Below are positions 2,413-25,050 of a stretch of 64,000 nt of DNA, one piece after another. The notes beneath the pieces are model-generated. The model saw only the letters and a program-made list of their open reading frames with translations. It made no database searches and was not told where the DNA came from. Numbering within the stretch: the first letter of the stretch is position 1; each line of letters opens with the position of its first letter. The DNA is taken from the NCBI RefSeq assembly GCF_056746865.1, contig NZ_CM163382.1, one strand, 5' to 3'. A program made the translations under genes and the position numbers.

Positions 2413-3108
2413 TTAAACCGGCGGCAGATCGAACAGTAACACTTCGCTGTCGCTATCCGCATGAATGGAGATTGCCTGCTCATCCCAGATTGCCAGACCA
2501 TCGCTGGTCGAGGCTTTCACGCCGTTAATGGTGACATTGCCTTTCACCACCTGAATCCAGACGCGGCGTTCAGCGGCAATCTGATGCACCGACTGCTCAT
2601 CTTTTACCAGCGCCCAGCGGTACAGTTCCATATCCTGATACACTTTCAGCGAACCATCACGCGCATCCGGCGAGAGCACCAGCTGTTTGCCCTGTACGGC
2701 ATCGAAGCGACGCTGTTCATAACGCGGCGTAATACCGTTTTCTTCAGGCATGATCCAGATTTGATACAGATGCAGACGCTCGGTGCTGCTTGGGTTGTAC
2801 TCTGAGTGACGAATACCCGTACCCGCACTCATAATCTGGAACTCACCCGCCGGAACCTGCTCTTTATTGCCCATGCTGTCCTGATGCTCAACAGTACCTT
2901 CCAGCACGTAGGTCAAAATTTCCATATCTTTATGCGGGTGAGTGCCGAAGCCCTGCCCTGCTTCAATCACGTCGTCGTTAATCACGCGCAGCGCGGAGAA
3001 GCCCATAAAGTTCGGATCGTAATAGTTGGCAAAAGAGAAAGTATGCCAGGAGTCCAGCCAGCCATGATTTGCATGACCACGTTCATTTGCTTTGCGTAAG
3101 TAGATCAT
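2413..3108 (-). CDS. yhhW: Pirin-like quercetin 2,3-dioxygenase
   Basis: 231-aa ORF with a cupin/pirin signature (GFGTHPHKDMEILTYVLEG); position matches yhhW. Confidence 0.85.
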   Translation of the reverse strand: MIYLRKANERGHANHGWLDSWHTFSFANYYDPNFMGFSALRVINDDVIEAGQGFGTHPHKDMEILTYVLEGTVEHQDSMGNKEQVPAGEFQIMSAGTGIRHSEYNPSSTERLHLYQIWIMPEENGITPRYEQRRFDAVQGKQLVLSPDARDGSLKVYQDMELYRWALVKDEQSVHQIAAERRVWIQVVKGNVTINGVKASTSDGLAIWDEQAISIHADSDSEVLLFDLPPV

Positions 3109-3230
3109 TTTTATTCGCCCCCTGAATGATTTCGATGGGCTTAGTGTGGACCCGATCCGCCTGGGATGATAGAGGGTGAAAATTGACCCCTCTGTTCAAA
3201 AAAATTGAACTATTCGAGGGGCCATCAAAC

Positions 3231-4268
3231 TTACTTCGCGAGAGTCACTGTGGAGGGAGAGGCTTGCTCAAATCCTCGTTCAAGGATTTCCAGATTGGTA
3301 AGAACTTCAGATTCCTTGACGTAATTTGGCGCACCGTTGGTGATGGTTTGATACAACGCATCATAAACGCGCCCGTAATCGCCCATCTCCGGCTTCATCT
3401 CTTCTCTGACCGTCACACCCTCGTCATTGACATACTCCAGCACACCGACCGAATCATCCGCTGCGAATCCCGGTTCGCCCGGCATAATATTGGCCTTGAG
3501 GCTGGTTTCCTGCTGGTCGATACCGTATTTAATAAACGAACCTTTCTTACCGTGAACGATAAATTTCGGATAATCGATTTTCACCAGATGGCTGGTTTTG
3601 ACGATGGCTTTCAGGTCGCCATAAAACAGCTGCGCTTCAAAGGTGTCGTCAGGATTGGCTTTATTACGCAGGCTGCGGATGTCATAAGCGACGTGATCCG
3701 GGCGACCGAACAGAGAAATAATCTGGTCCATCGTATGCACACCAAGACCATAGAACGCGCCATCCTGCGGCAGCCCAGGTTTGGTTTCTGCCACCGGGCG
3801 GTAATAGTCAAAATGGCTTTCCACTTCGACAATCTCTCCAAGCTTGCCGCTTTCAATCGCTTTTTTCGCTGTCAGGAAGCAGGAATCAAAGCGACGATTC
3901 TGATACGGCGTGACGGTCAGCCCTTTGCTTTTCGCCAACGCAAACAGCTCCTTCGCCTGGGCAAGCGTCGGGGTGAACGGTTTTTCGACCAGCACATTTT
4001 TCCCGGCTTCCAGCGCGCGCTTCGCGTACTCGAAGTGGCTGTCTGCATGGGTGCAGACCACAACCAGCTTAACATCGGGATCGTTTAGTACTTCGTCGAG
4101 ATCGCTGGTGAAATGGATATGAGAGTAAATGGGGGCCTGTTCTTCCGGCTTCGCATGGCGGCGAAAAATATGCGCGACATGCCAGCTATCCTTGCGGTTA
4201 AGTACATACGGCAGATGGTAACGGGTGGTGCTTTTGCCGAAGCCAATAAAGGCGCAGTTAATGACCAT
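3231..4268 (-). CDS. yhhX: Gfo/Idh/MocA-family NAD(P)-dependent oxidoreductase
   Basis: 345-aa ORF with an N-terminal Rossmann motif (CAFIGFGKSTTRYH); position matches yhhX. Confidence 0.85.
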   Translation of the reverse strand: MVINCAFIGFGKSTTRYHLPYVLNRKDSWHVAHIFRRHAKPEEQAPIYSHIHFTSDLDEVLNDPDVKLVVVCTHADSHFEYAKRALEAGKNVLVEKPFTPTLAQAKELFALAKSKGLTVTPYQNRRFDSCFLTAKKAIESGKLGEIVEVESHFDYYRPVAETKPGLPQDGAFYGLGVHTMDQIISLFGRPDHVAYDIRSLRNKANPDDTFEAQLFYGDLKAIVKTSHLVKIDYPKFIVHGKKGSFIKYGIDQQETSLKANIMPGEPGFAADDSVGVLEYVNDEGVTVREEMKPEMGDYGRVYDALYQTITNGAPNYVKESEVLTNLEILERGFEQASPSTVTLAK

Positions 4269-4602: not shown

Positions 4603-5091
4603 ATGAGTGAGATAGTGATACGCCATGCTGAAACGCGGGACTACGAGGCCATCAGGCAGATTCACGCCCAGCCGGAGGTGTATTGCAACACGCTACAGGT
4701 GCCTCATCCCTCCGATCATATGTGGCAGGAGCGACTCGCCGATCGCCCCGGCATCAAGCAGTTAGTCGCCTGTATTGATGGAATCGTCGTAGGCCATCTC
4801 ACCATTGACGTGCAACAACGCCCACGCCGCAGTCATGTTGCCGATTTTGGTATCTGTGTCGACTCCCGTTGGAAGAATCGCGGTGTCGCCAGCGCCCTGA
4901 TGCGAGAGATGATTGAAATGTGCGACAACTGGTTGCGGGTAGATCGTATTGAGCTAACGGTGTTCGTCGATAACGCGCCAGCAATTAAGGTCTATAAAAA
5001 ATTTGGATTTGAGATTGAAGGGACTGGCAAGAAGTACGCATTACGTAATGGTGAATATGTCGATGCGTATTATATGGCGCGGGTGAAGTAA
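4603..5091 (+). CDS. yhhY: GNAT-family N-acetyltransferase
   Basis: Internal ATG at 4603 of ORF 4510..5091 gives a 162-aa product (MSEIVIRHAETRDYEAI...) with an acetyl-CoA-binding motif (RWKNRGVASALM). Confidence 0.85.
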   Translation: MSEIVIRHAETRDYEAIRQIHAQPEVYCNTLQVPHPSDHMWQERLADRPGIKQLVACIDGIVVGHLTIDVQQRPRRSHVADFGICVDSRWKNRGVASALMREMIEMCDNWLRVDRIELTVFVDNAPAIKVYKKFGFEIEGTGKKYALRNGEYVDAYYMARVK

Positions 5092-5097
5092 GATAGT

Positions 5098-5123
5098 GCC
5101 CTTTTTCTGAGATGGAAAAAGGG
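5098..5123 (+). terminator. Candidate hairpin terminator after yhhY
   Basis: GCCCTTTTTCTGAGATGGAAAAAGGG forms a perfect 8-bp stem (CCCTTTTT/AAAAAGGG). Confidence 0.35.
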
Positions 5124-5326
5124 TGTCATTCAAAATCGGCATACCTTCCTTTAAGGTATTTATTTTCCCAATAAATATATAAGATTTACCTCATAATTAC
5201 GTCCTAAAGTGTAATATTTTATTTTTTAATATATACGCCTACAATTTCCTGGAGTAAATAAATAACAATTAACAAGCATAATAGTGCCATTGATAAAATA
5301 GCATGCCATAAAAGGACTTTTCATGG

Positions 5327-6439
5327 ATGAGTAATATTGTTTACCTGACAGTAACGGGAGAACAACAAGGAAGCATCTCCGCAGGTTGTGGGACTTCTGA
5401 GTCTACAGGTAATCGCTGGCAGAGCGGGCATGAGGATGAAATATTTACATTCTCACTCTTAAATAGTATTACTAATACGGGGCTTGGTTCACAGTTCCAT
5501 GGTATAACATTTTGTAAATTAATTGATAAAAGCACTCCATTATTTATTAATTCCATTAACAATAATGAACAATTATTTATGGAATTTGACTTCTATCGAA
5601 TAAATAGATTTGGTAGATGGGAAAAGTATTATTATATACAACTAAGAGGCGCTTTTTTATCGGCTATTCATCATCAGATCATTGAAAATCAACTGGATAC
5701 AGAAACATTAACTGTTAGTTATGAATTTATCCTCTGTCAACATCTTATCGCAAATACCGAGTTCAGCTATTTGGCACTCCCTGAAAATTATAACTGTTTG
5801 TTTTTACCAAATTCAAAAAACCAAACAAATAATCGTTTCAAAACGTTAAACAGCAAAGCTATTGGCAGGCTACTTGCTGCTGGTGGCGTATACAATGGGA
5901 ACATTGAAGGATTCAGAGATACTGCGGAAAAACTGGGTGGAGATGCAATAAAAGGCTATGATCAAATACTAAATGAAAAAACAGCGGGCATAGCGATAGC
6001 AACAGCATCTATTCTTTTAACAAAGCGTTCTAATGTTGATACATATACAGAAATAAATAGTTACTTAGGCAAACTTAGAGGTCAACAAAAACTTCTTGAT
6101 GGTATAGACATAATAGAAATAATATACATTAAGAGACCTTCAAAAGACTTAGCTAACTTACGAAAGGAGTTTAATAAAACTGTAAGAAAAAATTTTCTTA
6201 TCAAACTTGCAAAAACCTCCGAAGCATCTGAAAGATTCAACGCCGAAGACCTTTTAAGAATGAGAAAGGGCAATGTTCCTCTAAATTATAATGTTCACCA
6301 TAAACTATCTCTAGATGATGGTGGTACTAATGATTTCGAAAATTTAGTATTAATCGAAAACGAACCATATCATAAAGTTTTTACTAACATGCAATCACGA
6401 ATAGCTAAGGGAGTATTAGTAGGTAGACTGGCCCCCTGA
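5327..6439 (+). CDS. yhhZ: Hcp-family (T6SS tube-like) protein fused to a C-terminal HNH nuclease domain; 3' end replaced by the IS2 insertion
   Basis: N-terminal Hcp-like region followed by an HNH motif (NYNVHHKLSLDDGGTNDFENLVLIENEPYHK). The reading frame runs into the IS2 left end at 6424 and terminates after 4 IS-encoded codons (RLAP). Confidence 0.8.
   Translation: MSNIVYLTVTGEQQGSISAGCGTSESTGNRWQSGHEDEIFTFSLLNSITNTGLGSQFHGITFCKLIDKSTPLFINSINNNEQLFMEFDFYRINRFGRWEKYYYIQLRGAFLSAIHHQIIENQLDTETLTVSYEFILCQHLIANTEFSYLALPENYNCLFLPNSKNQTNNRFKTLNSKAIGRLLAAGGVYNGNIEGFRDTAEKLGGDAIKGYDQILNEKTAGIAIATASILLTKRSNVDTYTEINSYLGKLRGQQKLLDGIDIIEIIYIKRPSKDLANLRKEFNKTVRKNFLIKLAKTSEASERFNAEDLLRMRKGNVPLNYNVHHKLSLDDGGTNDFENLVLIENEPYHKVFTNMQSRIAKGVLVGRLAP
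6419..6423. repeat. 5-bp target-site duplication (GTAGG), left copy
   Basis: GTAGG immediately precedes the IS2 left end and recurs at 7755..7759 immediately after the right end. Confidence 0.85.
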
Positions 6440-7841: not shown

Positions 7842-8332
7842 TGACTAAAACCCAAATAAATAAATTAAAAAAAATGATGAATGATTTAGACTATCCATTT
7901 GAAGCACCGCTCAAGGAATCATTTATTGAAAGTATAATCCAAATAGAATTTAATTCTAATTCAACTAATTGCCTGGAGAAATTATGTAATGAAGTTAGTA
8001 TTCTTTTTAATAATCAACCTGATTATCTTAATTTTTTAAGAGCAATGGATGGATTCGAAGTTAATGGATTACGATTATTTAGCCTCTCGATTCCAGAACC
8101 TTCAGTTAAAAACCTTTTTACCGTAAATGAATTTTATAGAAATAATGATGATTTCATAAACCCTGATCTACAAGAACGGTTAGTGATCGGGGATGATAGC
8201 ATTTCAATATTTACTTATGACATTAAAAGTAACTTTTTTGAAATTAGAGATAATATTGGCACCGAAAATATATTCAGTTCGTTTAGTGATTTCTCTTCAT
8301 TCTTAAACGAAATCATGGACAGTTGTTCATAA
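7838..8332 (+). CDS. yrhA: Putative immunity protein for the YhhZ nuclease (SUKH/Smi1-Knr4-like)
   Basis: 164-aa ORF whose ATG overlaps the reconstructed yhhZ stop (ATGA), indicating translational coupling; it carries an ...FLRAMDGFEVNGLRLFSL... motif reminiscent of SUKH immunity proteins. The name is assigned from position. Confidence 0.6.
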   Translation: MMTKTQINKLKKMMNDLDYPFEAPLKESFIESIIQIEFNSNSTNCLEKLCNEVSILFNNQPDYLNFLRAMDGFEVNGLRLFSLSIPEPSVKNLFTVNEFYRNNDDFINPDLQERLVIGDDSISIFTYDIKSNFFEIRDNIGTENIFSSFSDFSSFLNEIMDSCS

Positions 8333-8543
8333 TAATCAAAAGGTAACAAAAATCATTGTAAACCATGCCATCTTTTTAGAGATTACCAGCAGAAAATTCC
8401 TTGTTCGAAACTTAGCAATGCAAGCTATGGAAAAACTTACAACGGAACTACACTCCTTAAGTGAGATGGACCGAAGACATGTAATCTCTATTTTAGCCGA
8501 AATAGCTAATGGCTATGATGATTTTAGTGACATGTTGATTTAG
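8331..8543 (+). pseudogene. Start-less open frame / gene remnant (...LAMQAMEKLTTELHSLSEMDRRHVISILAEIANGYDDFSDMLI)
   Basis: About 70 sense codons are open with the first ATG only at 8418; the frame differs from yrhA and the region is AT-rich. Confidence 0.3.
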
Positions 8544-8566
8544 TTAGAACTTCACCCGAATCATAA

Positions 8567-8746
8567 GATTCTGATATCTTAAATAAGAAAATCCCGTTCG
8601 ACGTTCTGAAAAAGAAATCACAAAATATTAGCAGATACTTATTTCGTGACTGTATATTATCCGATGAACTTTTTTCAAAACCAGCATTTAATAATATATT
8701 TGACGAAGATGAACGCGTCTTTTCTCAAAGTATAACGCAAGAATAA
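8567..8746 (+). pseudogene. Start-less open frame / gene remnant (...FRDCILSDELFSKPAFNNIFDEDERVFSQSITQE)
   Basis: 59 open codons with no in-frame ATG, ending at the TAA at 8744..8746. Confidence 0.3.
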
Positions 8747-17460: not shown

Positions 17461-18228
17461 TTATGCCTCACCTAAATAGGCACGGATCACGTCCGGGTTA
17501 TTACGGATTTGCTCCGGCGTACCGTTTGCCAGTGGCGTCCCCTGATTGACCACGTAAATTCGGTCCGAAATTCCCATCACCAGCTTCATATCGTGTTCAA
17601 TTAACAAGATAGTGGTGTTGTGATGATTGCGCAGTTCGGCAATCAGCTCATCCAGCTCTTTCGTCTCTTTCGGGTTAAGACCTGCCGCAGGTTCGTCGAG
17701 CATTAAAATCTCCGGCTGCGTCACCATGCAGCGGGCAATCTCCAGACGACGCTGGTCACCATAGGCCAGGTTACTCGCCTGACGGTTGGCATGTTCCAGC
17801 AAACCAATGCGCTCAAGCCAGGTAGCGGCGCGGTCGAGCGCTTCGCTCTGGGCGCGACGGAAAGAAGGCGTTTTCAAAAGGCCGGAGAACAGCCCGGTTT
17901 TCAGTTGCTGATGCTGTGCCACCAGCAGGTTTTCAATTACCGTCATTTCACGGAACAGACGCACATGCTGGAAGGTACGCACCACGCCCATGCGGGCAAT
18001 TTGCTGCCCCGGTAAACCTTCCAGATGCTGATCGCGCAGTAAAATAGTGCCGCCGGTGGGTTTATAGAATCCAGTCAGGCAGTTGAAGACCGTGGTTTTT
18101 CCGGCACCGTTAGGTCCGATTAACGAGACGATCTCCTGCGGGTACAGTTCAAGATTGACGTTGTTCACCGCCAGCAGGCCGCCGAAGCGCATCATCAGGC
18201 CGTTAACGGATAATAATGGCTGACTCAT
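17461..18228 (-). CDS. livG: Branched-chain amino acid ABC transporter ATPase
   Basis: 255-aa ORF with Walker A (GPNGAGKTT). Confidence 0.92.
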
Positions 18229-19502
18229 GCCTGCTCTCCTTTCGCTGCGCCGTTTTTCAGCTTCAGTTGCGGGCGCGTCATGGGCAGCAAGCCCTGCGGA
18301 CGCCAGATCATCATCAGCACCATCAAACCACCGAGCATTAACATGCTGTATTCGTTGAAATCACGCATCAATTCGCGCGACACCACCAGCAAAATTGCCG
18401 CCAGAATTACCGCAAATTGCGAGCCCATACCGCCAAGCACCACTATCGCCAGCACAAACGCCGATTCGGCAAAGGTGAAGGATTCCGGGCTGACAAAGCC
18501 CTGACGCGCAGCAAACAGCGTTCCGGCAAAACCGGCAAACGCAGCGCTAATGGTAAAGGCAGTCAGCTTGATACGACGCGGGCTTAAGCCCAGCGAACGG
18601 CAGGCGATCTCGTCTTCACGCAACGCTTCCCACGCACGGCCCAGCGGCATCCGCAGCAGGCGGTTAATGACAAACAGGCTTAATACCACCAGCAGCAACG
18701 CCACCAGGTACAGGAAGATAACGCGATCGGAGGGATCGTATTTCAGGCCAAAGAAATTACTGAACGTGTCCCAGCCGCCTTCGCGGGCGGTACGGCTGAA
18801 CTCGAGGCCGAAGAAAGTCGGTTTCGGGATCTGACTAATTCCGTTCGGGCCACCAGTGATTTCAGTGTTATTGAGCAGCAATATGCGCACAATTTCGCCG
18901 AAACCGAGGGTAACGATCGCCAGATAGTCACCGCGCAGACGCAGCACCGGAAAGCCGAGCAGGAAGCCCGCCGCCGCCGCCATTAACCCGGCAATCGGCA
19001 GACAGGTCCAGAAGCCCAGACCGTAATAGTGATTGAGCAGCGCAAAAGTGTAAGCGCCGATGGCGTAAAAGCCGCCGTACCCCAGCACCAGCAGACCAGA
19101 AAGACCTACCACCACGTTCAGCCCGAGGCCAAGGATAATGTAGATCATGGTCAGGGTGGCAATATCCACCGTCCCGCGTGAAACCATAAACGGCCACGCC
19201 ACCGCAAGCACCAACAGCGCCACGAGGAACAGTTTCTGTTTCACCGTGGAGCCATCAATCGCGGGCAGAATAAACTTCGGTCCGGAAACGCTTTTCAGCC
19301 CTTTCTGGAAAGCCGGTCGCAAAAGCTGGAAGAAAAAGACCACCGCCGTGCCGATAAACACCCACTGCCAACGGATGTCTGAAGCCGTGTCGACCACCAG
19401 TTTGGTGCCATCCAGCTCCAGTTGCACGCCCATAAAGACGCCAGCGAGGACAAAGAACATCGCGGCAGAGAGCAACGCCATTGCAATATGCATCGGTTTC
19501 AT
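18225..19502 (-). CDS. livM: Branched-chain amino acid ABC transporter permease
   Basis: 425-aa membrane ORF in liv order. Confidence 0.9.
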
Positions 19503-20425
19503 ACTTTCTCTACCTCCGGGCGACCCAGAATACCGGTCGGCATCACCAGCAACACAAGAATCAGCAGGGCGAATGAGACCACATCTTTATATTCCGTACT
19601 CAGATAGGCAGAAGAGAGCGCCTCCGCAATCCCCAGGATCAGCCCGCCAATCATCGCTCCCGGAATGCTGCCAATCCCACCGAGCACCGCAGCGGTAAAG
19701 GCTTTCATCCCGGCCATAAAGCCGATGTAGGGGTTAATGACGCCGTAGAACTGACCGAGTAGCACACCCGCCACCGCCGCCATCGCCGCGCCAATCACAA
19801 AGGTCAGCGCAATCACCCGATCGGTGTTGATGCCAAGCAGGCTCGCCATTTTCAGATCTTCCGCGCAGGCACGGCAGGCGCGCCCCATACGGGAATAGCG
19901 AATGAAAATCGTCAGCGCCAGCATGGCGAGGAAAGTAACAATCCATATCACCGCCTGCATGGTGGTAATAGAGGCAGAGAAGTTTTCGCTATGGCCCACC
20001 ACCCACTGACCGTTAAACAGACTGGGCAGCGCCACGTCGCGCGAACCTTCGGTCAGACTGACATAGTTTTGCAGGAAGATGGACATGCCGATTGCGGAAA
20101 TGAGCGCAATCAGGCGCTTAGAGTTACGCACCGGGCGATAGGCCACCCGTTCGATACTCCAGCCGTAGGCGCTGGCAATGACGATTGCGCCGACGAATCC
20201 CGCCGCCACCAGTAGCCAGCCGGTATCAATGCCCAGCATCATCAGTGCGGCGATGATCATAAAGGAGACATAGCTACCAATCATATAAACCTCGCCGTGG
20301 GCGAAGTTGATCATGCCGATAATGCCGTAAACCATGGTGTAGCCGATGGCTATCAGCGCGTAGGTACTGCCCAGCGTGACGCCGTTAAACATCTGCTGCA
20401 AGAAATACAAAAACTGCTCAGACAT
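19499..20425 (-). CDS. livH: Branched-chain amino acid ABC transporter permease
   Basis: 308-aa membrane ORF. Confidence 0.9.
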
Positions 20426-20472
20426 AAGGTAACCTTTCTAAACCCGCCCGTTTTTCACGGGCGGTGGGATGA

Positions 20473-21582
20473 TCACTTGGCTGCCGTGGATGAACCGTCG
20501 GCGTGCCACTGGAAGACACCAAAATCAAATCCCTTAAGATCGCCTTTTTCATCCCAGTTCAGCGGCCCAATCACGGTGTTCGCACCGTTAGCTTTTAAAT
20601 CTTTCACCAGTGCCAGCGGCTCATCGCTGCCGGTACGCTCAAGGGCAGTCGCCAGAGATTGCACCGCCGCGTAAGTGATCCAGACATAAGGCCCGGACGG
20701 ATCTTTCTTGTCTGCTTTCAACGCATCAACAATGCCCTGGTTTGCCGGATCCTGGTCATAGCGTTTTGGCATAGTGACCAACATGCCTTCGGCAGCATCG
20801 CCAGCAATATTCGACAACGACGCATTACCCACACCTTCCGGCCCCATAAACTGAGTTTTCAGGCCAACGGAACGGGCCTGGCGCAGCATCTGCCCCATTT
20901 CCGGGTAGTAACCGCCGTAGTAAACGAAGTCGATGTTTTCTTTTTTCAGGCGGGCGATCAGCGCGGAGAAATCTTTCTCCCCGGCGGTAATACCGTCGAA
21001 GAAAACGACGTTGGCATTGGCTGCTTTCAATCCGTCCTGCACCGAACGCGCCAGCCCTTCACCATACTGTTGTTTGTCGTGAATGATCGCGATGCGCTGG
21101 GGCTTCACCGTCTCAAGAATGTATTTTGCCGCCGTTGGCCCCTGGGAAGAGTCCAGCCCGGCAGTGCGCATGATGTGTTGATAACCGCGTTGGGTCAGCT
21201 CCGGGTTGGTCGCTCCCGGCGAGATCATCAGAATACCTTCGTCTTCGTAGATATCTGAAGCAGGCTGGGTAGAGGAGGAACACAGATGGCCGATGACGTA
21301 TTTAATGCCGTCGTTAACGATTTTGTTGGCGACCGCAACGGCTTGTTTCGGATCGCAGGCGTCGTCATATTCCACGCCCACCAGCTTATCGCCCTTAATT
21401 CCCCCTTTGGCATTAATGTCTTTAATGGCCTGACGCGCGCCGTTAAATTCCATATCGCCCCACTGAGCAATCGGACCGGACATCGCGCCGACAACGGCAA
21501 CTTTAATATCGTCGGCTAAAGCGGTGTGTGAAATTGCCAGTGCAATCATCCCTGCGATGATAGTTTTCGCATTCCGTTTCAT
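20473..21582 (-). CDS. livK: Leucine-specific periplasmic binding protein
   Basis: Internal start [23 protein letters not shown] gives 369 aa; paralogous to the downstream livJ. Confidence 0.9.
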
Positions 21583-22005
21583 AGTCAAAAATCCCCACTC
21601 GTAATGTTGTGTTGCTTTGTTTTTATGTGTTAACAAATCAGGCTGTTCTTTTTTTATACTGCGCTGTTTTTACCTGTCTGATTAAGGGTTTAGCGCAGTA
21701 TTTTGTGATAATAGCGATTAAAATCCCTATTTTTCAGTCGATTAAGAACAGATAATATTCTGAATTAATTGATAGATAAACAGAAAAAAGCACCGTTGTC
21801 AGCATAAAATAACGGAACAAAGGGCAGAATAATTCACTACCATTCAGGGGATTATGCTGGACATTTTTCATTCTCTAATGTTTTAACTTTGTAATTATTG
21901 CTGAAAAAAAATTAATCACCTGCCAAAAGAAATAAAAAAGAGAAAGCCTCCGATTAAATTATTTCGCTACACTGGTTCCTCTTTTGTGATTTACACGGGT
22001 TACCC

Positions 22006-22389
22006 ATGAAGCTGACCATCATTCGATTAGAAAACTTTAGCGACCAGGACCGGATTGACCTGCAAAAGATCTGGCCGGAGTATTCCCCTTCCTCTTTACA
22101 GGTTGACGATAACCACCGTATCTACGCCGCGCGTTTTAACGAGCGCCTCCTAGCGGCCGTGCGGGTAACCTTAAGCGGCACCGAGGGGGCACTGGATTCT
22201 CTACGTGTGCGGGAAGTCACCCGCCGTCGCGGTGTGGGGCAATATCTGCTGGAAGAGGTTTTGCGTACCAATCCTGGCGTTTTAGGCTGGTGGATGGCGG
22301 ATGCTGGCGTGGAAGATCGCGGTGTGATGACAGCGTTTATGCAGGCTCTGGGATTTACGGCACAACAGGGCGGCTGGGAGAAGCGTTAA
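22006..22389 (+). CDS. panM: PanD maturation factor (GNAT-like, CoA-binding)
   Basis: 127-aa ORF (MKLTIIRLENFSDQDRIDLQKIWPEY...) between livK and livJ. Confidence 0.85.
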   Translation: MKLTIIRLENFSDQDRIDLQKIWPEYSPSSLQVDDNHRIYAARFNERLLAAVRVTLSGTEGALDSLRVREVTRRRGVGQYLLEEVLRTNPGVLGWWMADAGVEDRGVMTAFMQALGFTAQQGGWEKR

Positions 22390-22430
22390 TCGTCAAGTTT
22401 GATTTCAAAAGTGACGACCAACGAGAAATT

Positions 22431-22530
22431 GCCTGATGCGCTACGCTTATCAGGCCTACAATGTGTGCTGCAATTTACTGATTTCTTTGGATCTTGTAGG
22501 CCGGATAAGGCGTATACGCCGCATCCGGCA
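22431..22530. repeat. REP/BIME element pair between panM and livJ
   Basis: GCCTGATGCGCTACGCTTATCAGGCCTACA and an inverted copy TGTAGGCCGGATAAGGCGTATACGCCGCATCCGGCA. Confidence 0.75.
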
Positions 22531-22588
22531 TGAAGCAACGTACTCGATATTAGCAATTTGGCGGCAACTCCAAGTTGCCGATTAATGA

Positions 22589-23692
22589 TTACTTCGCATC
22601 GGTCGCCGTGCCGTTGGCGTGCCAGTCAAATACGCCGAACTCAAAGCCTTTCAGATCGCCTTTCTCATCCCAGGTCAGCGGCCCCATCACCGTATCCACG
22701 GAGTTCGCTTTCAGGTATTTGGCGATTTCAGCCGGATCGTCAGACTGATTCAGACCCGCCTGCAAAGATTGCAGCGCGGCGTAGGTGGTCCAGACGAACG
22801 CGCCGCTTGGGTCCTGTTTCTTCGCTTTGATCGCGTCAACAATTGGTTTGTTCGCCGGAACCTGATCGTAGTTCTTCGGCTTGGTCACCAGCAGCCCTTC
22901 CGCTGATTCGCCCGCAATGTTAGACAGCGAGACGTTAGCCACGCCTTCCGGCCCCATAAACTGAGTTTTCAGCCCCGCCGCGCGTGCCTGACGCAGGATT
23001 TGCCCCATTTCCGGGTGATAACCGCCGTAGTAAACGAAGTCGATATTCTCTTTTTTCAGACGCGCCACCAGCGTAGAGAAATCTTTTTCCCCGGCGGTGA
23101 TGCCATCAAAGAACACCACGTTAGCATTGCCTTTCTTCAGGCCGTCCTGCACCGCACGCGCCAGACCTTCGCCGTATTGCTGTTTGTCGTGGACGATAGC
23201 AATACGCTGCGGTTTCACTTTATCAAGAATATATTTCGCCGCCGTCGGCCCCTGGTCGGAGTCCAGGCCGGTAGTGCGCAGGATCAGCTGATAGCCACGA
23301 GCGGTCAGCTCTGGCGCGGTTGCCGCTGGGGTGATCATTAAAATGCCTTCATCTTCATAGATGTCTGACGCTGGCTGCGTTGATGAAGAACAGAGGTGAC
23401 CAATCACATATTTAATGCCGTCGTTAACGACTTTGTTCGCCACCGCAACCGCCTGTTTCGGGTCACAGGCATCGTCATATTTCACGATTTGCAGTTTGTT
23501 GCCTTTGATACCACCTTTAGCATTGATATCCGCAACCGCCTGCTCAGCACCAGTAAACTCCTGGTCACCGTACTGGGCCACCGGACCGGACATTGCGCCC
23601 ACGACCGCGACTTTAATATCTTCTGCCAGAGCCATATTGCTGAATGCCAGCGCGATACATCCTGCCAGTAACGCTTTACCCTTTATATTCAT
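22589..23692 (-). CDS. livJ: Leu/Ile/Val-binding periplasmic protein
   Basis: Internal start [23 protein letters not shown] gives 367 aa. Confidence 0.9.
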
Positions 23693-23910
23693 CCTGAGAA
23701 TCCCCATTCTTCTGGTTATTACGTGTGTTGTGATGTTGTTGTTCAGCACTTTATTTCGTTTTATGCATGACTACCCGTGCTTTAGCAGCATACTCTGCTA
23801 AAACATACCCGATTTTTATGATATTGGAATAGCTATTTTGACAGTTTATTAACAATCTGCGTGGGGATTGGCGTTTTGCCGGAGGGGGAAACTGATTATT
23901 GCAGAGGCCC

Positions 23911-23944
23911 AAAAAACAAAAACCCCGGATTCTCATCCAGGGTT
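23911..23944 (-). terminator. Candidate intrinsic terminator of rpoH
   Basis: The minus strand reads AACCCTGGATGAGAATCCGGGGTTTTTGTTTTTT: a GC stem followed by a U-run, just downstream of the rpoH stop. Confidence 0.6.
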
Positions 23945-23963
23945 CTCTGCTTAATAGCGGAAA

Positions 23964-24818
23964 TTACGCTTCAATGGCAGCACGCAATTTTTTCATCGCG
24001 TTCTTTTCCAGCTGGCGCACACGCTCAGCGGAAACACCGTAACGGTCAGCCAGTTCCTGCAACGTGGACTTGTTGTCTTCGTCCAGCCAGCGCGCGCGGA
24101 TGATATCCTGGCTACGCTCGTCCAGACCTTGCATCGCGTCGGTCAGACGGTTTGCCGCCTGCTCTTCCCAGTTATCATCTTCAATGCCGTCAGCAAAGTT
24201 AGATGATTTATCCTGCAGATAGAGCACCGGAGCCATCGGCTGGCTGTCGGAATCGTCGTCGGAAGACAGGTCAAAGGTCATGTCCTGTGCCGCCATACGC
24301 GACTCCATCTCACGTACGTCTTTGCTGGTTACGCCCAGTTCACGGGCCACCATTTCAACTTCATCCTGGTTAAACCAGCCCAGACGCTGCTTGGTTTTAC
24401 GCAGGTTGAAGAACAGTTTGCGCTGCGCTTTGGTGGTCGCAACTTTGACGATACGCCAGTTACGCAGAACGTATTCGTGGATCTCTGCTTTGATCCAGTG
24501 GACGGCGAAGGAGACCAGGCGCACACCCACTTCCGGGTTAAAACGGCGCACTGCTTTCATCAGGCCGATGTTACCTTCCTGAATCAAATCCGCCTGTGGC
24601 AGGCCATAGCCCGCATAATTACGAGCAATATGAACAACAAACCGCAGGTGAGACAGGATCAGCGTTTTAGCTGCTTCCAGATCGCCATGGTAATGCAGCT
24701 TTTCAGCCAGCGCCCGCTCCTCGTCAGCCGACAACATCGGCCACGCGTTAGCTGCCCGGATGTAGGAATCCAGGTTGCCAACTGGGGCTAAAGCTAAACT
24801 TTGCATTTTGTCAGTCAT
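23964..24818 (-). CDS. rpoH: RNA polymerase heat-shock sigma factor sigma-32
   Basis: 284-aa ORF beginning [35 protein letters not shown], with sigma-70 regions 2 and 4. Confidence 0.95.
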
Positions 24819-24984
24819 TCAAATCCTCTCAATCGATATCTTCTGGCGCTTCAGTGGTAGCAACAACTGTGCCAGAGCTTAAGAGCAACGAGGTTATCAT
24901 TCACTGTTTTATCAGACCGTGATTTTATCCACAAGTTCAATGCAAGCTTGTGAATAAATTACGCACAAAATGTGACATAGAGAT

Positions 24985-25050
24985 GAAATACCGGGAAGAG
25001 ACAACGGGGTCTCTTTCCCTGCTACGGAACCCATTGCAGGGAAAGAGTAT
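24985..25050. promoter_or_regulatory. rpoH upstream regulatory region overlapping the ftsYEX terminator hairpins
   Basis: Perfect 10-bp inverted repeat CTTTCCCTGC...GCAGGGAAAG plus an overlapping alternative stem, between the ftsX stop and the rpoH promoters. Confidence 0.4.

Follow-up and report, generated by a model that had tools for sequence, protein, structure and literature searches.

The sequencing of the Escherichia coli genes for LIV-BP (livJ) and LS-BP (livK) is credited in PMC2374795 to Landick and Oxender (1985, J Biol Chem 260:8257). Their locus is the one studied here: the homology of the two genes was recognised when they were first sequenced, and the two binding proteins share the LivHMGF transporter. 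New relative to that work are a dating of the duplication, a test for gene conversion, and a survey for fusion alleles. As a comparison class for such alleles, we used the fusions made by unequal crossover between paralogs, namely, hemoglobin Lepore (δβ-globin), CYP11B1/CYP11B2, and CYP21A1P/A2 (PMC4041002, PMC8750845, and PMC3161346). In these, as in the livJ/livK fusions, an in-frame joint links the 5′ portion of the upstream paralog to the 3′ portion of the downstream paralog, the DNA between the two disappears, and the junctions lie in the most similar stretch. However, the globin and CYP pairs exceed 90% identity and undergo meiotic recombination, whereas livJ and livK are 74% identical, reside in a bacterial host, share identical blocks of at most 34 nt, and lose an unrelated gene (panM) in the deletion.

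Two further comparisons come from bacteria. Nearly identical to each other, the tuf genes lie far apart in inverted orientation and are kept homogeneous by conversion; Abdulkarim and Hughes reportedly described gene conversion between tufA and tufB in Salmonella and E. coli in 1996. Like tufA and tufB, livJ and livK are two paralogs of one enterobacterial chromosome that are able to exchange by homologous recombination, but unlike them, they are not homogenised in E. coli. The rrn operons, IS elements, and Rhs are kilobase-long, nearly identical repeats that rearrange frequently. What livJ and livK have in common with these is that repeats in direct orientation favor the deletion or duplication of whatever lies between them; the livJ/livK homology, in contrast, is marginal, and events are estimated at about 1 in 10,000 genomes.

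In our window (the whole 64,000-nt stretch analyzed, from contig NZ_CM163382.1 of assembly GCF_056746865.1), livK occupies positions 20473 to 21582 on the minus strand. This open reading frame of 369 codons plus stop encodes the leucine-specific periplasmic binding protein and is the first gene of livKHMGF. The Leu/Ile/Val periplasmic binding protein is encoded by the monocistronic livJ (positions 22589 to 23692, minus strand; 367 codons plus stop). Between the paralogs, on the opposite (plus) strand, lies panM (panZ/yhhK; positions 22006 to 22389), which encodes the activator of PanD autocleavage and whose knockout (yhhK) is a β-alanine auxotroph (PMC3496974). The earlier note had described livK and livJ as paralogs in direct orientation around panM, about 2 kb apart. 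The open reading frames, RefSeq names, and NCBIfam scores agree with this description, and the copies lie in register on the same (minus) strand at a measured distance of 2,110 nt. Both binding-protein genes match NCBIfam NF011933 over their full length (699 bits for livK and 697 bits for livJ; cutoff, 477), and residues 1 to 126 of the panM product score 188 bits against the PanM equivalog NF033213 (cutoff, 68). The names livK, panM, and livJ stand in the RefSeq annotation of a 100%-identical record (E. coli 118UI). Open reading frames for livH and livM immediately follow livK in the window, and livHMGF is annotated in two of the loci compared (L001 and L002). This is the familiar livJ–panM–livKHMGF locus, intact and ordinary in this strain.

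The divergent livK–panM intergenic region (positions 21583 to 22005; 423 nt), on the promoter/leader side of livK, has the same length in K-12, and a three-way alignment revealed no meaningful similarity between it and the region upstream of livJ. In the panM–livJ spacer (positions 22390 to 22588), REP-like palindromes occupy positions 22446 to 22529 (inverted repeats I1 and I3), and it was because of this spacer that the genome survey returned extra matches per genome (median, 19 places). Three loci (L001, L002, and L007) carry ataT/ataR between panM and livJ, and the ataRT toxin-antitoxin pair is inserted there in many other strains. When promoters and terminators were scanned for, the rpoH terminator alone exceeded the shuffled expectation. 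We also considered the divergence of livK, panM, and livJ from K-12 (3.2 to 4.7%) as a locus-specific signal and rejected it; livH diverges by 3.7% as well, and the values therefore reflect strain background. Nothing in the window departs from the classical locus, and the locus and the mechanism were both already known. For the window itself, the analysis has little significance, as it re-describes a classical paralog pair.

A pairwise alignment of the two genes, one of two checks proposed in the earlier note, gave 812 identical positions out of 1,104 (73.6%) with one 6-nt indel. LivJ and LivK are 77% identical in amino acid sequence; third codon positions are near saturation (48.5% identity), and the fraction of identical codons is 0.51. 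Identical runs between the genes are real, but calling them long was an overstatement: at this overall identity, the longest measure 29 nt (gene positions 721 to 749; livK 20834 to 20862 and livJ 22944 to 22972), 26 nt (gene positions 649 to 674; livK 20909 to 20934 and livJ 23019 to 23044), 22 nt (gene positions 263 to 284; livK 21299 to 21320 and livJ 23409 to 23430), and 16 nt (gene positions 677 to 692; livK 20891 to 20906 and livJ 23001 to 23016), all on the minus strand. Both strings quoted earlier as examples exist, slightly displaced from the positions given for them (20851 and 22941 for one and 21299 and 23409 for the other): CGGCCCCATAAACTGAGTTTTCAG is found at 20839 to 20862 and 22949 to 22972, within the 29-nt run, and ATTTAATGCCGTCGTTAACGA is found at 21300 to 21320 and 23410 to 23430, within the 22-nt run. 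Each occurs exactly twice in the window and not once in 100 shuffles. The 26-nt run was absent from those examples.

The 26-, 16-, and 29-nt blocks all fall in the most similar segment of the genes, gene positions 646 to 754 (20829 to 20937 in livK and 22939 to 23047 in livJ, minus strand), to which the natural fusion junctions described below map. The best 100-nt window, starting at gene position 650, is identical at 88 of 100 positions, and the best 50-nt window is identical at 46 of 50. Exact runs vary by strain, with 26, 25, and 16 nt in K-12 and 22, 20, 17, and 16 nt in UTI89; an identical block of 34 nt occurs in some other E. coli lineages. Gene positions 600 to 750 are the most conserved, even between paralogs of different genera (0.82 to 0.87), and paralog identity there is about as high as ortholog identity, as might be expected if the runs were a nucleotide-level functional element (an RNA structure or a regulatory site) residing in both coding regions. 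We regard such an element as very unlikely, given that the exact runs are not kept among E. coli strains (K-12 and UTI89 differ), that synonymous identity in this part does not exceed the gene-wide rate in run tests, and that Rfam gave no match within positions 19500 to 25000. Moreover, an identity of about 0.8 is predicted from full amino acid conservation and saturated third positions alone.

The phylogenetic distribution of the genes points instead to an old duplication. About 50 species of Enterobacteriaceae carry livJ–panM(reverse)–livK; compared with the window proteins, LivJ orthologs are 85 to 99% identical and LivK orthologs 85 to 100% identical, against 74 to 79% across paralogs. In about 24 loci of other Enterobacterales (Yersinia, Serratia, Pectobacterium, Dickeya, Hafnia, Pantoea, and others), there is only one copy, in the order rpoH–panM–livK-like. 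Neighbor-joining trees recover the K genes, the J genes, and the single-copy genes each as a monophyletic clade. Judged from gene order and these trees, livJ and livK trace back to a single duplication that took place in the ancestor of Enterobacteriaceae, and panM adjoined the single ancestral gene already before the duplication. This duplication put an additional binding-protein gene between rpoH and panM, and livJ and livK have diverged independently since, to 74% nucleotide identity. Runs of up to 29 nt (34 nt in some E. coli) are leftovers of conserved protein segments combined with shared codon preference, not traces of recent exchange. When livK of one genus was compared with livJ of another, the longest exact run had a median of 23 nt and reached at least 29 nt in 21% of 2,622 pairs. 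The livK/livJ runs are far above chance for unrelated DNA and within expectation for old, synonymously saturated paralogs. For such paralogs, the comparison provides a baseline, exact runs of 20 to 35 nt without conversion, that helps to judge similar first-pass findings. It is very likely, in our judgment, that the locus is the classical livJ–panM–livKHMGF arrangement from an old duplication, with identical runs that are leftovers and with occasional homology-guided deletions that yield rare, nonspreading alleles.

The same stretches could have been kept, or recently made, by livJ–livK conversion that is ongoing in E. coli, a concerted evolution of the tufA/tufB kind. The clustering of identical runs at gene positions 649 to 749 would fit this, as would three neighboring synonymous variants in the window livK (561, 564, and 567) that match livJ. 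We rejected the latter as a micro-conversion, as the diagnostic bases at 559, 560, and 563 stay livK type and break up the cluster. The within-genome livK–livJ distance in E. coli (0.262 to 0.274) equals the cross-genus distance (0.25 to 0.29), both gene-wide and within each 60-nt window; none of the sliding windows had excess within-genome identity. Identical synonymous codons are unclustered in the window (longest run, 8 codons; permutation P = 0.44) and in six Escherichia livK/livJ pairs (P = 0.29 to 0.72), and the polymorphisms of E. coli alleles include no paralog-matching tract. Among complete E. coli genomes, all livJ alleles except the EFF60 fusion (see below) are at least 95% identical to the window livJ. 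The reciprocal monophyly of the K and J clades and the frequency with which cross-genus pairs reach a 29-nt run also speak against conversion. No gene conversion between livJ and livK was seen in E. coli, and we hold its ongoing action there to be extremely improbable. The process is real in Mangrovibacter plantisponsor, where livK and livJ share an identical tract of 81 nt (27 identical codons; P < 0.001), and 9 of 52 species had P < 0.05 in the codon-run test, compared with about 2.6 expected by chance. The conversion between paralogs that the earlier note proposed is thus clear in the Mangrovibacter tract but not seen in E. coli.

With the runs read as leftovers of an old duplication, it can still be asked whether they suffice for recombination. 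The identity needed in E. coli has been put at about 23 to 90 bp depending on the pathway (PMC3758752) and at about 30 bp at most (PMC8918686). The window blocks of 29 and 26 nt are only at the lower limit of this need, in genes with an overall divergence of 26%.

The other proposed check, a survey of E. coli for livJ/livK chimeras or panM loss, yielded one livJ/livK fusion without panM among 5,426 complete genomes. panM is full length in 5,424 of these genomes, and livK and livJ are each present in 5,425; four complete genomes carry two panM copies. The single genome found with a junction-specific query is that of strain EFF60 (GCF_023373585.1), in which one gene is left between livH and rpoH. 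It has 132 livJ-type diagnostic sites followed by 111 livK-type sites, with the switch point within the 16-nt identical block at gene positions 677 to 692; panM is gone, and a 23-nt frameshift deletion has turned the fusion into a pseudogene. At least five draft isolate assemblies (L090, L091, and L111 to L113) have the corresponding layout, ftsYEX–rpoH–fusion–livHMGF, as do many metagenome/Logan contigs. About 50 distinct chimeric livJ/livK proteins are present in public assemblies, and the public data include examples from Klebsiella and Enterobacter.

Fusion junctions fell into the intervals 646 to 674, 677 to 692, 703 to 707, and 721 to 754, and most lie at gene positions 646 to 754, the most similar stretch. 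The same junction interval is shared by fusions of distinct allelic origin, which differ from one another at up to 34 nucleotides. In the protein survey, no clean E. coli-type fusion junction was found in the 22-nt block at gene positions 263 to 284. The junction interval of one draft isolate (L112) is only 5 nt, and on a 1.0-Mb contig (L111), livJ position 893 is joined out of register to livK position 820. Deletion of the panM region, which the earlier note had anticipated, does occur, although very rarely. The duplication that it also anticipated was not found: a query for the reciprocal livK5′/livJ3′ chimera, which covered crossovers between about positions 180 and 925, gave 0 of 5,424 complete genomes. 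As a whole, the earlier interpretation (deletion, duplication, and gene conversion) is partly supported. Low-coverage matches that looked like deletions in the first genome survey (H26 to H29) were rejected: the appearance arose from how matching pieces were joined, and an intact livK–panM–ataT–ataR–livJ is present. In the literature library searched, no paper on livJ/livK fusion alleles, chimeras, or conversion was found.

Were the locus recombinationally inert, the public chimeras would be artifacts of assembly or library preparation, arising by de Bruijn loop skipping at shared k-mers or from chimeric molecules. A livJ5′–livK3′ fusion is the exact product that loop skipping would yield. The chimeric contigs are mostly short, with low coverage (1.3 to 3.1), and most junctions lie in 646 to 674 (at most 29 nt) and 721 to 754 (at most 34 nt), both of which exceed a k of 21; the latter block can even exceed the k of 31 used by Logan. 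In many metagenome and Logan chimeras, the junction block is no shorter than the smallest k of the assembler. One contig (L088) has Nextera adapters at both ends, and another (L089) is full of frameshifts. EFF60, however, is a complete genome with a 16-nt junction block, below any assembler's k, and an independent 23-nt deletion. The 5-nt interval of L112, the out-of-register junction on the 1.0-Mb contig, and isolate contigs of 39 to 171 kb with intact neighboring genes are likewise at odds with an artifact, and the frequency in complete genomes (1/5,426) is of the same order as a rough guess for drafts. In one Logan contig (L095), the junction lies in the block that measures at most 29 nt; since k is 31 in Logan and once-seen k-mers are discarded, this junction must exist in the reads. 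As a general proof against k-mer artifacts, we rejected this argument: it is good only for that shorter block, given the 34-nt block of some E. coli lineages. We consider it unlikely that artifacts account for the public chimeras, though some of those in metagenomes may be assembly artifacts. A practical warning follows, as low-coverage short-read assemblies can fabricate the same livJ/livK fusion product.

The direct repeats, 2.1 kb apart, can occasionally support homology-guided deletion in their most similar stretch (gene positions 646 to 754). The product places the livJ promoter and the 5′ part of livJ in front of the 3′ part of livK and livHMGF and lacks panM. Such fusion alleles occur in nature at roughly 1 in 10,000 genomes, without spreading. 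Their rarity presumably reflects the need for panM in β-alanine/pantothenate prototrophy and the differing specificities of the binding proteins. RecA-dependent exchange and slippage/annealing are the candidate routes of the deletion. Simple RecA-type exchange at a block of minimal homology leaves some junctions unexplained, namely, those with no more than 5 or 16 nt of identity and those out of register; they suggest that some deletion events may be RecA independent.

We think it likely that livJ/livK is a recurrent natural deletion hotspot in Enterobacteriaceae despite its 74% identity, with events that arose independently in E. coli, and probably also in Klebsiella and Enterobacter, within the approximately 110-nt stretch from 646 to 754. 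These events would usually give an in-frame hybrid under the livJ promoter and, with the loss of panM, an expected need for β-alanine or pantothenate. A hotspot of this kind would offer a natural readout, in wild populations, of how diverged sequences recombine when their homology is no greater than the classical minimum. The wider interest of the pair lies in a duplication dating to the base of Enterobacteriaceae and in the predicted fusion with panM loss, which was found in nature.

The two binding-protein genes lie in direct orientation on the minus strand, livK at 20473-21582 (369 codons) and livJ at 22589-23692 (367 codons), and flank panM on the plus strand (22006-22389); among the window's open reading frames (ORFs), livK is followed downstream by livH and livM, and livJ has rpoH upstream. 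The arrangement reported in the earlier note is borne out by this layout, by the RefSeq record of E. coli strain 118UI (100% identical to the window), which labels the genes livK, panM, and livJ, and by NCBIfam scores. Both binding proteins match NF011933 (livK, 699 bits; livJ, 697 bits; cutoff, 477), and the protein encoded between them matches NF033213, the PanM equivalog (188 bits versus a cutoff of 68). The livJ/livK homology was recognised at first sequencing (Landick and Oxender 1985, as cited in PMC2374795), and the livK–panM–livJ feature of the window is a known and ordinary one. Between K-12 and window positions 18225-24818, livH, livK, panM, and livJ differ by 3.2 to 4.7%, nearly all at synonymous sites, and rpoH, adjoining livJ, by only 1.8%. 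The panM–livJ spacer of the window (22390-22588) is without ataT/ataR and holds REP-like palindromes at 22446-22529. Many E. coli strains carry this toxin–antitoxin pair between panM and livJ (at 5051-5851, 7914-8714, and 2914-3714 in comparison loci L001, L002, and L007); there, ataT overlaps the 3′ end of panM by 4 nt and the paralogs lie about 750 nt farther apart. In UTI89 (locus L004, 4209-5208), there is no rpoH within 1 kb upstream of livJ and a PTS IIA gene starts at 5143 instead, suggesting that DNA has been inserted between rpoH and livJ in that lineage.

The earlier note had quoted two strings as examples of long identical stretches. Each occurs exactly twice in the window and never in shuffled sequence, at positions slightly off those first reported (20839/22949, not 20851/22941; 21300/23410, not 21299/23409). 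"Long" was generous, because the longest exact runs are 29, 26, 22, and 16 nt (gene positions 721-749, 649-674, 263-284, and 677-692) at an overall nucleotide identity of 73.6% (812/1104, with a single 6-nt indel in the global alignment). Over the best 100 nt, identity reaches 88%; amino acid identity is 77%, and identity at third codon positions is 48.5%. The runs differ by strain (26, 25, and 16 nt in K-12; 22, 20, 17, and 16 nt in UTI89), and a 34-nt block spans 721-754 in three other E. coli strains. When livK and livJ are compared across genera, the longest exact run has a median of 23 nt and reaches at least 29 nt in 21% of 2,622 pairs. Among codons for conserved amino acids, 51% are identical between the two window genes, with a longest run of 8 codons (permutation P = 0.44); P lay between 0.29 and 0.72 in all six Escherichia pairs tested.

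The proposed gene conversion is wrong for E. coli: none was found in distances, 60-nt windows, codon runs, or alleles. The livK–livJ distance within E. coli genomes (0.262 to 0.274) equals that between E. coli livK and livJ of other genera (0.25 to 0.29), and no 60-nt window showed excess identity within genomes relative to the cross-genus comparison. Eight alleles of each gene differed almost entirely at third positions, with no tract matching the paralog. A cluster of three sites in the window livK (561, 564, and 567), considered as a conversion, was rejected, because bases diagnostic of livK break it up. In 5,425 complete genomes, every livJ shares at least 95% identity with that of the window, the sole exception being one fusion allele, and livK identity goes down to about 95%. 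Because the distance, sliding-window, longest-run, codon-clustering, and strain-variation results agree, the identical runs are residues of conserved protein segments and of saturated, codon-biased third positions, with no mark of recent exchange. The pair behaves unlike tufA/tufB. Outside E. coli, conversion does occur in this pair. In both Mangrovibacter species (L052 and L070), livK and livJ are 90 to 100% identical in codon-alignment columns 488-660 and have derived amino acids in common there (…GLATSVRDGLKKAGA…). In M. plantisponsor, they share an 81-nt identical tract (27 codons; P < 0.001), where the M. plantisponsor livJ most resembles the livK of the sister species; this is a genuine gene-conversion tract. 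Identical codons were clustered at P < 0.05 in 9 of 52 species (about 2.6 expected).

Scanning a single genome from each species yielded 78 related loci. The livJ–panM(reverse)–livK arrangement occurs in about 50 Enterobacteriaceae species, in which orthologous proteins are 85 to 100% identical and paralogs only 74 to 79%. Other Enterobacterales families contribute about 24 loci (L060 to L086), from genera including Yersinia, Serratia, Pectobacterium, Dickeya, Hafnia, and Pantoea, that have a single livK-like copy in the order rpoH–panM(reverse)–livK–livH, and neighbor-joining trees resolved the K, J, and single-copy groups as each monophyletic. This distribution, the steady cross-paralog identity, and the monophyly place the duplication at the base of Enterobacteriaceae, with the new copy put on the far side of panM and no whole-gene homogenisation since. 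Since single-copy Enterobacterales already have panM next to livK, that adjacency is older than the duplication that created livJ. In Citrobacter amalonaticus S646 (L013, 1-3700), livJ is absent within 4.5 kb upstream of panM and a 744-amino-acid ORF on the opposite strand fills the space, reflecting either an insertion that displaced livJ or livJ loss.

The E. coli locus is highly stable. Of 5,426 complete genomes, 5,424 carry a full-length panM, 5,425 carry livK, and 5,425 carry livJ. One complete genome is without all three genes. To detect deletions, we used a junction query joining livH and the livK 3′ end to the livJ 5′ end and rpoH, which aligns as a single place only when the interval is deleted. 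It had exactly one match among complete genomes, strain EFF60 from swine-manure effluent, whose one gene between livH and rpoH is annotated as "livK, frameshifted." This gene has 132 livJ-type diagnostic sites followed by 111 livK-type sites, with the switch between positions 676 and 693, within the 16-nt identical block and beside the 26-nt block; its livJ part has an additional CGC-flanked 23-nt deletion. The deletion predicted from the repeats was right in kind but rare, with EFF60 the sole complete-genome case and further fusions in drafts. The predicted duplication is unsupported: the reciprocal livK5′/livJ3′ tandem junction was found in 0 of 5,424 complete genomes. In four complete genomes panM is present twice, and place counts of the junction queries suggest larger segmental duplications.

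A DNA pattern combining livJ-specific bases 624-648 with livK-specific bases 745-761 matched only EFF60 among the comparison loci (the window did not match) and three metagenome contigs. All three are clean fusions with a single switch, joined in either the 26-nt or the 29-nt block; as far as each contig reaches, they lie between rpoH upstream and livH downstream. A fusion-protein search returned about 50 distinct proteins 90 to 100% identical to the query (normal LivK, 89%; LivJ, 87%), each with a single J-to-K switch in diagnostic residues. Every fusion context examined reads ftsYEX–rpoH–fusion–livHMGF, with panM absent.

The survey rests on assembled sequence, and many chimeric contigs are short, with coverage of 1.3 to 3×. 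Metagenome contig L088 starts with P5/i5(TAGATCGC)/Nextera sequence (1-46) and ends with a Nextera/i7 adapter (1198-1238), its insert stopping exactly at the fusion-gene stop codon; the contig is either an untrimmed library molecule or an amplicon and is untrustworthy as an assembly. Direct repeats sharing a block of at least k can form a de Bruijn loop, and skipping that loop at low coverage gives exactly a livJ5′–livK3′ fusion. SPAdes and MEGAHIT have a smallest k of 21. Logan uses a k of 31 and discards singleton k-mers (PMC12424806), and its matches at the 721-754 block are indecisive because the 34-nt block exists in some E. coli lineages. Independent of the loop-skipping caveat are EFF60, a complete genome joined within 16 nt (677-692 in livK), the isolate draft GCA_902847985.1 (5 nt; 703-707), and Logan contig L095, whose junction block is at most 29 nt. 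So are isolate contigs of 39 to 171 kb with intact neighboring genes, and the isolate draft GCA_026135125.1, where a 1.0-Mb contig has an out-of-register junction (livJ 893 to livK 820; 393-amino-acid product). In this last assembly (L111), rpoH at 2875-3727 is seemingly frameshifted near codon 40, probably a long-read indel error, and we therefore place less confidence in its base-level accuracy. The other isolate drafts among the more reliable records have junctions at livK positions 646-674 (GCA_022666735.2 and GCA_002972555.1) and 721-754 (GCA_014888435.2). Fusions joined in the same interval show up to 34 nucleotide differences outside it and therefore arose more than once. The same kind of fusion directly precedes livH in one Klebsiella contig and one Enterobacter hormaechei contig.

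The locus combines direct repeats with identity blocks of marginal length, and natural deletion products with a single switch cluster in the 110 nt where the paralogs are most alike. Recombination in E. coli requires about 23 to 90 bp of uninterrupted identity, depending on the pathway, and exchange between diverged sequences is aborted by mismatch repair (PMC3758752, PMC8918686). A rare exchange, or slippage/annealing, starting in the 646-754 stretch would delete panM and leave the livJ promoter driving a hybrid gene together with livHMGF. A yhhK/panZ knockout requires β-alanine (PMC3496974); losing both panM and one of the binding specificities may keep fusion alleles at their low frequency of about 1 in 5,400 complete genomes. 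A literature search for livJ/livK chimeras or conversion found no description of the fusion alleles, a small by-product of this check that is apparently unreported. Lepore-type fusion genes have a bacterial counterpart in this deletion product.
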